Shown: positions 49,718 through 50,637 of the stretch, piece by piece
Layout: each line of letters opens with the position of its first letter
Numbering within the stretch: position 1 is the stretch's first letter
Assembly: GCA_951406725.2 (NCBI GenBank)
Contig: OX597832.1
Coordinates: forward strand, 37,572,001-37,636,000
Direction: 5' to 3'
DNA: 64,000 nt
DNA from: Octopus vulgaris
Lineage: Eukaryota
Notes under the pieces: model-generated
The model's input: the letters and a program-made list of their open reading frames with translations, nothing else
What the model was told of the DNA's origin: nothing
Databases searched by the model: none
Program-made: the position numbers and the translations under genes

Positions 49718-50082
49718 TAAACCAGGTATTGTTGGGAAAGACCAAAACAATAAAATCTGTTTATTGATTGACATGAGCATACCTTGTGATCGCAAAAGAT
49801 TTGTAGGTACGTAGTACTTCGTTATTGAAACACAATATACTATATGGTATGCTAAATGGTTTCATAAGTCAGTACCAGGTTCTACTGCGTCAGCAGTGTG
49901 CTCTTATAATATTCTGTTACGGTTATTTCTTCAGATGTTCTATGGAACAGATTTTTGCTACAACGCTTCGTACTGAGACGTCAAATGTAAAGAGACAATG
50001 AGATCGGAGACAAAAATGGATAATGAGTGTATATGCCAATAACTTAACACCGCTGCATGCGGTGGTTTTATAAGCAATGCGT

Positions 50083-50176
50083 TCGGAGGCAAGAGTGGGT
50101 TTGATGAATGCTGAAGAAGGGCCTACAACCCCCGAAATATAGCATATACACTCACCTTAACCACTTTTGTCTTCGA
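50083..50176 (+). ncRNA. Type I hammerhead ribozyme, partly degenerate (copy 1)
   Basis: CTGAAGA 50111-17, AGGGC-ctacaa-CCCCC, GAAA 50134-37, ATAT-agc-ATAT-A, helix I TGAATG/CACTCA. A-C mismatch at the first helix II pair probably impairs activity. Confidence 0.75.
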
Positions 50177-50437
50177 CCACATTGTCTGTTTACGTCTGGC
50201 GTTTCGATACGGGAACGTTGTAGCAAAAATCGGTGCTGGCTGCAAGAACACTGCTGACACAATAGAACCTGGTACCGACCTATGAAAATATTTAGTATAC
50301 CTTATAGTATGTTGAGTTTGCATTATGAATTATCACGTACCTAGAAATCATTAATGTTCACGTACCAGCCCCAAGACTGCGCCTAATATGTAAATTGGTA
50401 TATTCAATAGCTTAACACGGCTGTATAAACAATGTGT

Positions 50438-50529
50438 TCGGAGGCAAGAGTGGGTTTGATGAGTGCTGAAGAGGGGGCAACAACCCCCGAAATATAGTAT
50501 ATATACTCATTACCCACTTTTGTTTTCGA
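50438..50529 (+). ncRNA. Type I hammerhead ribozyme, intact core (copy 2 of tandem pair)
   Basis: Core CTGAAGA 50466-72. Helix II GGGGG/CCCCC with loop CAACAA. GAAA 50489-92. Helix III ATAT-agt-ATAT, cleavage triplet ATA ending 50503. Helix I ATGAGTG/TACTCAT, then a TTG/T internal loop and an 18-bp distal stem (50438-55 with 50512-29, including G-U pairs). Confidence 0.88.
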
Positions 50530-50637
50530 TCATATTGTCTGTTTACATCTGACGTCTCGATACGAAACGTTGTAGCAAAAGTCAGTGCTGGCTTTAAGAG
50601 GTATAGAATATCTGTAAAAATAACCTTAACAACGAAA

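Follow-up and report, generated by a model that had tools for sequence, protein, structure and literature searches.

Metazoan non-LTR retrozymes are described, in the available parts of two reports, as non-coding units of 150-450 nt with a GC content below 50%, one type I hammerhead ribozyme each and target duplications of more than 4 bp (PMC7229834; 10.64898/2026.07.22.740005). In the same parts, their mobilisation by Penelope-like elements was proposed from the co-occurrence of the two and from pLTR homology, and not from insertion ends. Insertions of Penelope elements themselves have been depicted as an inverted 5′-truncated copy next to a partial tandem, with a tail of 30-40 bp at one end and target duplications mostly given as 8-10 bp, within a span of about 7-12 bp (PMC8557442, PMC3846280), and a further paper lists an extra base between A9 and G10.1, together with a palindromic helix III, as traits of Penelope hammerheads (PMC4209133). 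More recently, in vitro work on the Poseidon element PAc of the green anole reported, in the portion of the text available, that both target strands are cut and extended, that reverse transcription starts at two internal sites of a stem-loop rich in AC that lies 3′ of the hammerhead, the tail being the sequence between them, and that ribozyme cleavage is dispensable (Frangieh et al. 2024, PMC11167929). A search of the literature, with Repbase and Dfam outside its scope, brought up no paper that deals with retrozymes of cephalopods or with a tail of about 120 nt, and the family described below may already be catalogued.

The locus under study lies in a window of 64,000 nt of the Octopus vulgaris genome, a term used here for the whole stretch of DNA that was analysed. 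It is an insertion of 849 bp (49792-50640) that carries hammerhead repeats and splits an old LINE-like fragment. To judge from its sequence, this is likely an old insertion of a 410-nt retrozyme-type repeat that would have been mobilised in trans by a Penelope-like reverse transcriptase (RT) / GIY-YIG protein. The limits of the insertion follow from its flanks, which are contiguous in the uninterrupted relative L019, and from the heptamer TGTGATC, which is found on both sides here and only once in L019. Translated together, 49717-49785 on the left and 50641-51117 on the right give a single frame of a LINE-like endonuclease, presumably of the RLE / R4-Dong type. For the naming of this host element, a Pfam search gave no match and the protein atlas returned unnamed eukaryotic clusters only. 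The features of the locus are as follows, with monomer positions numbered from the first base 3′ of the cut site, and with E1 and E2 as the two fixed end sites of the family.

49717..49791, plus strand: left host piece, an old LINE-like endonuclease fragment, contiguous with 50641-51117 in L019
49785..49791, plus strand: left copy of the target-site duplication, TGTGATC, from the sequence; single copy at the homologous L019 site
49792..50038, minus strand: inverted 5′-truncated arm, which starts in helix III, passes the cut site and E1, and ends at E2 (monomer ~246)
50029..50246, plus strand: direct partial unit 1, monomer 292 to 95, overlapping the inverted arm by ~10 nt
50074..50185, plus strand: hammerhead 1 in its long hairpin, with C3 at 50111 and a predicted cut after A50148
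50241..50640, plus strand: direct unit 2, a nearly full monomer (135 to ~135) that ends at E1
50243..50362, plus strand: predicted long hairpin between E1 and E2 (the 117-nt tail), with the E2 motif near 50338-50357
50429..50538, plus strand: hammerhead 2 in its long hairpin, with C3 at 50466 and a predicted cut after A50503
50641..50647, plus strand: right copy of the target-site duplication, TGTGATC, from the sequence
50641..51117, plus strand: right host piece, the end of the ORF and the 3′ region, from its translation and its 74% identity to L019 2247-2687

The locus thus consists of an inverted partial arm placed head-to-head with a partial tandem, within a target duplication of 7 bp. The inverted arm lacks the 5′ hammerhead core, and direct unit 1 has lost the E1 tail in a deletion of ~43 nt bounded by TAAG. 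At the diagnostic sites of the family the arms agree in 12 of 18 cases, and in one of 19 rare variants. An earlier note on this DNA had already recognised the element, placed at 49797..50630, as tandem hammerheads; the true insertion is slightly wider, and the inverted arm, the target duplication and the two fixed end sites had gone unseen. Outside the insertion, a tRNA-like sequence on the minus strand was observed inside an inverted repeat at 49385-49595: ARAGORN predicts a tRNA-Phe at 49385-49460 (minus strand), which scores 20.7 bits with the Rfam tRNA model, below threshold, and the surrounding arms (49403-49468 and 49524-49589) are 86% complementary. A SINE headed by a tRNA, part of which has been inverted, is one possible reading of this region.

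All 11 core bases and the G10.1-C11.1 pair are intact in both hammerheads, with the boxes CUGANGA, GAAA and NUH in a three-helix type I topology whose helix III is marginal as a monomer. Copy 2, which alone matched when a type I descriptor was applied to the two strands of the window, shows CUGAAGA at 50466-50472, GAAA at 50489-50492 and the triplet AUA (H17, A50503), together with a helix II of five G-C pairs capped by CAACAA (50473-50488), a helix III of 4 bp, all A-U (50492-50502), and a helix I with nine contiguous pairs. This core recurs in copy 1, 355 nt upstream (C3 50111, H17 A50148), where helix I contains a mismatch and a 2-nt insertion and helix II has 3 bp. When folded, the two 121-nt hammerhead regions give z scores of -8.9 and -4.7, and none of 200 shuffles was as stable; the 355-mer between the cut sites folds with a z score of -3.8. 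By computation, opening the core would cost 6.3 kcal/mol in copy 1 versus 1.9 in copy 2. Descriptor, core and folding therefore agree with the earlier proposal of two type I hammerheads predicted to cut after 50148 and 50503; the complete core and the CAACAA-capped helix II of copy 2, the measured spacing of 355 nt and the weak helix III, which besides being all A-U is palindromic, are likewise as first described. The A-C mismatch that the note had reported in copy 1 is indeed present, but it is the normal state of the family rather than local damage: 51 of 58 aligned hammerhead hairpins carry an extra A between A9 and G10.1, a trait listed for Penelope hammerheads in PMC4209133, so that helix II has 4 bp and a fifth G-C pair, as in copy 2, is uncommon, with a G in 4 of 58 copies. 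The exchanges of G-C for G-U, in which the note saw pairing preserved, are poor evidence for selection, since 87.9% of the cells are paired versus 87.4% in shuffled alignments. The Rfam hammerhead models, put forward as a check that would support rather than define a type I hammerhead, gave no match at gathering score in the window, and no hammerhead family was among the 40 matches at E values up to 10. In structure prediction the hammerheads of this locus look weakened, and the copy is probably either weak or dead. The family consensus also includes, 45-70 nt beyond the cut site (50548-50575), a small hairpin of the form CUGA ... GAAACGUU. It was considered as a second, vestigial minimal hammerhead with a palindromic ACGU and was set aside on inspection of its sequence, since A9 is replaced and helix I lacks closure.

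The repeat belongs to a dispersed family. In the genome searched (2.8 Gb in 227 contigs, dense in microsatellites), two internal motifs gave 227 and 360 matches with up to two mismatches, versus none for the reversed controls. Since each motif recovers only a fraction of the known copies (37/83 and 36/79), these counts scale to about 510 and 790 copies, or roughly 500-800. The analysis rests on 175 distinct loci in three sets: 61 that came from searches with DNA or with a hammerhead pattern (set 1), 80 for which an internal 24-mer was the main criterion (set 2), and 34 chosen by the hammerhead or the E2 motif, with L038 left out as a duplicate of L036. The unit of the family is self-closing, non-coding, with stops in all six frames, and 410 nt long, and the 355-nt spacing of the window equals this length minus the ~43 nt lost before position 135 between TAAG motifs and ~12 nt elsewhere. 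A multi-copy family with a partly decayed copy in the window, as the earlier note had supposed, is borne out by the motif counts; a circle of 355 nt as the family product is not, because this length arises from local deletions. Nor, in the loci sampled, are tandem arrays the typical form: no long array was seen among the 175 loci, the longest continuous pass is 678 nt (a maximum of 1.65 units), and two complete hammerheads on one strand occur at the window locus and in only 5 of 141 loci. The pieces longer than 150 nt (n=173) are 72-94% identical to the consensus, with a median of 84.5%, and none exceeds 94%. Linked subfamily variants exist. A short-tail subfamily (for example L015, L129, L173 and L195) has an E1 tail ~13 nt shorter, which implies a unit near 397 nt. 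The exact hammerhead pattern had no match in metagenome contigs. In one locus (L024, 1369-2297) both arms show numerous transitions in clusters, T to C on one side and A to G on the opposite one, possibly through A-to-I editing of a fold-back RNA before its reinsertion, or as an artefact of local assembly. At least four further hammerhead-like motifs unrelated to the 410-nt family, one pair of them inverted, were observed near Penelope loci (L084 near 208, minus, and 455, plus; L087 near 3015, minus; L079 near 690, minus; L083 near 45, plus), which indicates that this genome contains several hammerhead families.

The family hammerhead is not minimal, with 4 bp in helix II, 4 bp in helix III and ~34 bp in helix I. 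In the 58-copy alignment, chosen by likeness to the window copies, all 11 core bases are kept in 24 copies, and the core together with G10.1-C11.1 and the helices in 13, both window copies included. Conservation of core and stems among genomic copies had been expected as a sign of function, but retention of the core is 0.918, where base class alone predicts 0.893, and the CpG position G12 survives in no more than 77% of the copies: the core decays close to neutrally. Hammerhead pairs with double changes number 17 versus 12.3 in shuffled alignments (14 of 500 shuffles), an excess that kinship of the sequences can also yield, and RNAalifold returned no consensus pairs for the 58 hammerheads or for an alignment of 44 hairpins located between E1 and E2. 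In computed folds, helix III alone is not stable, and as a dimer it reaches -8.4 kcal/mol for the family; copy 2 paired with itself reaches -5.2, and copy 1 with copy 2 only -2.2. The ribozyme of the master element is well formed and would likely have worked best as a dimer, given that helix III is a weak palindrome.

The insertions of the family leave a distinctive footprint. Arms on both strands are present in 103 of the 175 loci, head-to-head in 102 of these, and their outer 3′ ends cluster at two sites 117 nt apart, E1 (median position 134, n=96) and E2 (median 251.5, n=100). Where both ends could be assigned (72 loci), 69 loci pair E1 with E2, three pair E1 with E1 and none E2 with E2, with the E1 window widened to 85-150. 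This widening merges into E1 a third class of 27 ends at monomer 85-114, about half of which, by eye, run into the E1 motif of the short-tail subfamily. With the widened window, set 2 alone gives 38, 2 and 0 loci, respectively; with a strict window of 115-150, sets 1 and 2 together give 44, 0 and 0. The remaining 31 two-strand loci were unassignable, 30 with an end outside both windows and one not head-to-head, and among the 72 single-arm loci 33 end at E1, 23 at E2 and 16 elsewhere. E1 and E2 are similar AC-rich motifs closing in TAAT|GT, and they flank a segment (monomer 134-257) predicted to fold as one long hairpin (z score of -4.7), whose basal helix would pair E1 with E2. This basal helix is the weakest part of the hairpin (77% paired). 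One inner pair shows a compensatory subfamily change from C-G to U-A in 9 of 44 rows, and covariation over the whole hairpin is not above that of shuffles in the same 44 rows.

Target duplications of at least 7 bp flank 17 of 59 and 18 of 79 loci, versus 5.2% and 6.3% in mismatched controls, a four- to five-fold excess that concerns only about one quarter of the loci and includes some microsatellites. The ribozyme cut does not set the ends of the insertions: 134 of 192 arms extend at least 15 nt beyond the cut site, where the stop rate (0.08-0.09 per 15 nt) is like that of the surroundings and shows no peak. Nor are the ends enriched at (TA)n, with 8 of 139 versus a background of 5.4%. Inner arm ends are scattered along the unit, and an overlap of 1-33 nt is present at 19 of the 30 junctions of simple form. 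Sets 1 and 2 contain 87 two-strand loci, and in 74 of them the two arms share at least 40 nt of the unit, which rejects classic L1-type twin priming, where the pieces would tile one RNA. Arms of the same locus share subfamily variants at 76% of the diagnostic sites, versus 47.5 ± 3% between loci, a similarity that would fit a single template, and also one active master or later conversion.

Candidates for the enzyme that could provide these ends were sought in the same genome. A GIY-YIG family search gave 6136 candidates, of which 150 were scored; among 46 Penelope-type loci, a small sample of these candidates, no DNA or covariance-model match to the 410-nt repeat was found. Likewise, no RT / GIY-YIG ORF is joined to a family copy in 176 loci, the only two hits being unjoined and more than 1 kb away, and the repeat thus does not count as an autonomous Penelope element. 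The genome does contain a young family whose RT / GIY-YIG ORF of 781 aa is intact, and which by its cysteine linker we take to be of the Neptune type, as well as several relatives of it; none resembles the 410-nt repeat, and the helper may be an older element or one of a different clade. In this young family (L106 406-4087; L107, L109, L111, L120), a second long frame of ~270-380 aa was noticed 5′ of the RT ORF, and the hammerhead descriptor had no match in the 385-bp terminal repeat of L106. A related Penelope-type family (L112 near 4721, L113 near 4810) has a minimal hammerhead with a palindromic GUAC in its 3′ region. L113 also contains a young inversion of 766 bp, 100% identical, both arms of which end at the same base beside (TA)n, in contrast with the E1 and E2 ends and the lack of (TA)n enrichment of the 410-nt family.

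The preferred reading, mobilisation in trans by a Penelope-like enzyme, builds on what is observed, namely a dispersed family, a closed 410-nt unit devoid of ORFs, head-to-head arms, duplications, two fixed 3′ ends and read-through of the cut site. The process would start with the transcription of a tandem master, whose RNA would either stay uncut or be cut and re-ligated into a circle. A template longer than one unit, of one or the other kind, is indicated by the 37 of 286 pieces that exceed 410 nt, eight of them with two cut sites. The enzyme would then bind near the long hairpin 3′ of the ribozyme and nick both target strands, so that the two nicks would prime at different sites, E1 for one and E2 for its partner, either of a single RNA or of sibling RNAs. 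Both cDNAs would pass back through the hammerhead, stop early and be joined head-to-head, often through short overlaps, and the inserted copy would finally decay. The ribozyme would serve the master RNA, likely as a dimer, and would not determine the insertion ends. Several observations count against this reading: the failure to find a helper among the 46 Penelope-type loci, the tail of 117 nt instead of 30-40, the small share of loci with duplications of at least 7 bp, the weak covariation of the hammerhead and of the hairpin, the absence of consensus pairs in RNAalifold, and the modest agreement between the arms of the window locus. A narrower version, which is only tentative, is that an enzyme dimer occupies a single hairpin and primes one target strand per foot, always E1 plus E2; its template would be a circle of 410 nt that the ribozyme produced and that was copied through more than a full turn. 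One priming event per foot would make the tail as long as the hairpin, 117 nt. If true, the family would record how Penelope enzymes make inverted insertions. The window locus itself is probably a fossil without host function.

A different origin in the same group of elements, which we consider unlikely, is that the copies are pLTR stumps of a Penelope-like element that is autonomous and has its coding part outside the loci sampled. The footprint matches that of autonomous Penelope elements, most Penelope copies are 5′-truncated, and PMC4209133 lists among the traits of Penelope hammerheads both a palindromic helix III and an additional base between A9 and G10.1. Against this origin, the arms that run upstream of the hammerhead enter the hairpin and the previous unit again, with 74 of the 77 at risk passing monomer 256; the 37 of 286 pieces longer than one unit, the lack of any joined Penelope protein match in 142 plus 34 loci, and free 5′ flanks that recur only as common repeats point in the same direction. 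It is even less probable that the window locus is an active retrozyme today, transcribed and cut at 50148 and 50503 to yield a circular RNA of 355 nt. Both copies do pass the core test that 13 of 58 copies pass, two complete hammerheads are a feature of just 5 of 141 loci, the 355-mer folds with the z score of -3.8 given above, and mussel retrozymes of 350-390 nt form circles, according to the available text of PMC7229834. The proximal helix I of copy 1 is nevertheless broken, with the costlier core opening noted above (6.3 versus 1.9 kcal/mol in copy 2), helix III is unstable alone and the dimer helix of copies 1 and 2 reaches -2.2 kcal/mol versus -8.4 for the family, no copy is more than 94% identical to the consensus, and in vitro cleavage failed for eight of nine dimers taken from the Xenopus genome, as stated in 10.64898/2026.07.22.740005.

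Least probable of all, to the point of being largely refuted, is an origin of the inversions at the DNA level, by fold-back or MITE-like elements or by later rearrangement and gene conversion, with no Penelope-type reverse transcription. Inverted arms with target duplications do look like derivatives of DNA transposons, and conversion could explain the similarity of arms within a locus, but the outer ends are different sequences 117 nt apart and not terminal inverted repeats. The scatter of the inner ends and the 72 of 175 loci with a single arm, 56 of which end at E1 or E2, also argue against it.

When set beside the described systems, as far as the available text of the reports cited above allows, the 410-nt family shares with metazoan non-LTR retrozymes its unit size, a GC content below 50%, one hammerhead per unit, copies longer than one unit, duplications of more than 4 bp (7 bp here) and the co-occurrence of Penelope-like elements. 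Its unit compares with the 350-390 nt of mussel retrozymes (PMC7229834, available text). In contrast to those retrozymes, the family is old, reaches a maximum of 1.65 units in the loci sampled and usually carries a head-to-head inversion. By its sequence it would count as an animal non-LTR retrozyme under the definition in those texts, marginally so for the tandem arrangement.

The insertions, in turn, resemble those of EN+ Penelope elements in the inverted truncated arm, the partial tandem, the short overlap at the inversion, the one-sided tail, a target duplication within about 7-12 bp and the hammerhead within the repeat, and differ in the absence of an RT / GIY-YIG ORF and of (TA)n enrichment, and in tail length: the one-sided extension, present in 69 of the 72 assignable loci, measures 117 nt as against the 30-40 bp of the Penelope tail. 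A further parallel is PAc, with two AC-rich sites 3′ of the hammerhead that define the tail in both cases; cutting and extension of both target strands, and ribozyme cleavage that can be dispensed with, would likewise be shared under the preferred reading. According to the available text on PAc, its start sites are 30-40 nt apart inside an ORF, whereas E1 and E2 lie 117 nt apart in a non-coding RNA and are used one of each in 69 of 72 inversions. The kind of element is already known; to this the present analysis adds a tail of 117 nt on one side only and the strict rule by which an E1 end is paired with an E2 end. Beyond co-occurrence and repeat homology, the family shows the Penelope-type insertion footprint itself, with numbers, and the rule of E1 plus E2, never two E2, together with the long tail, makes the two-site priming model of Penelope inversions testable in vitro.
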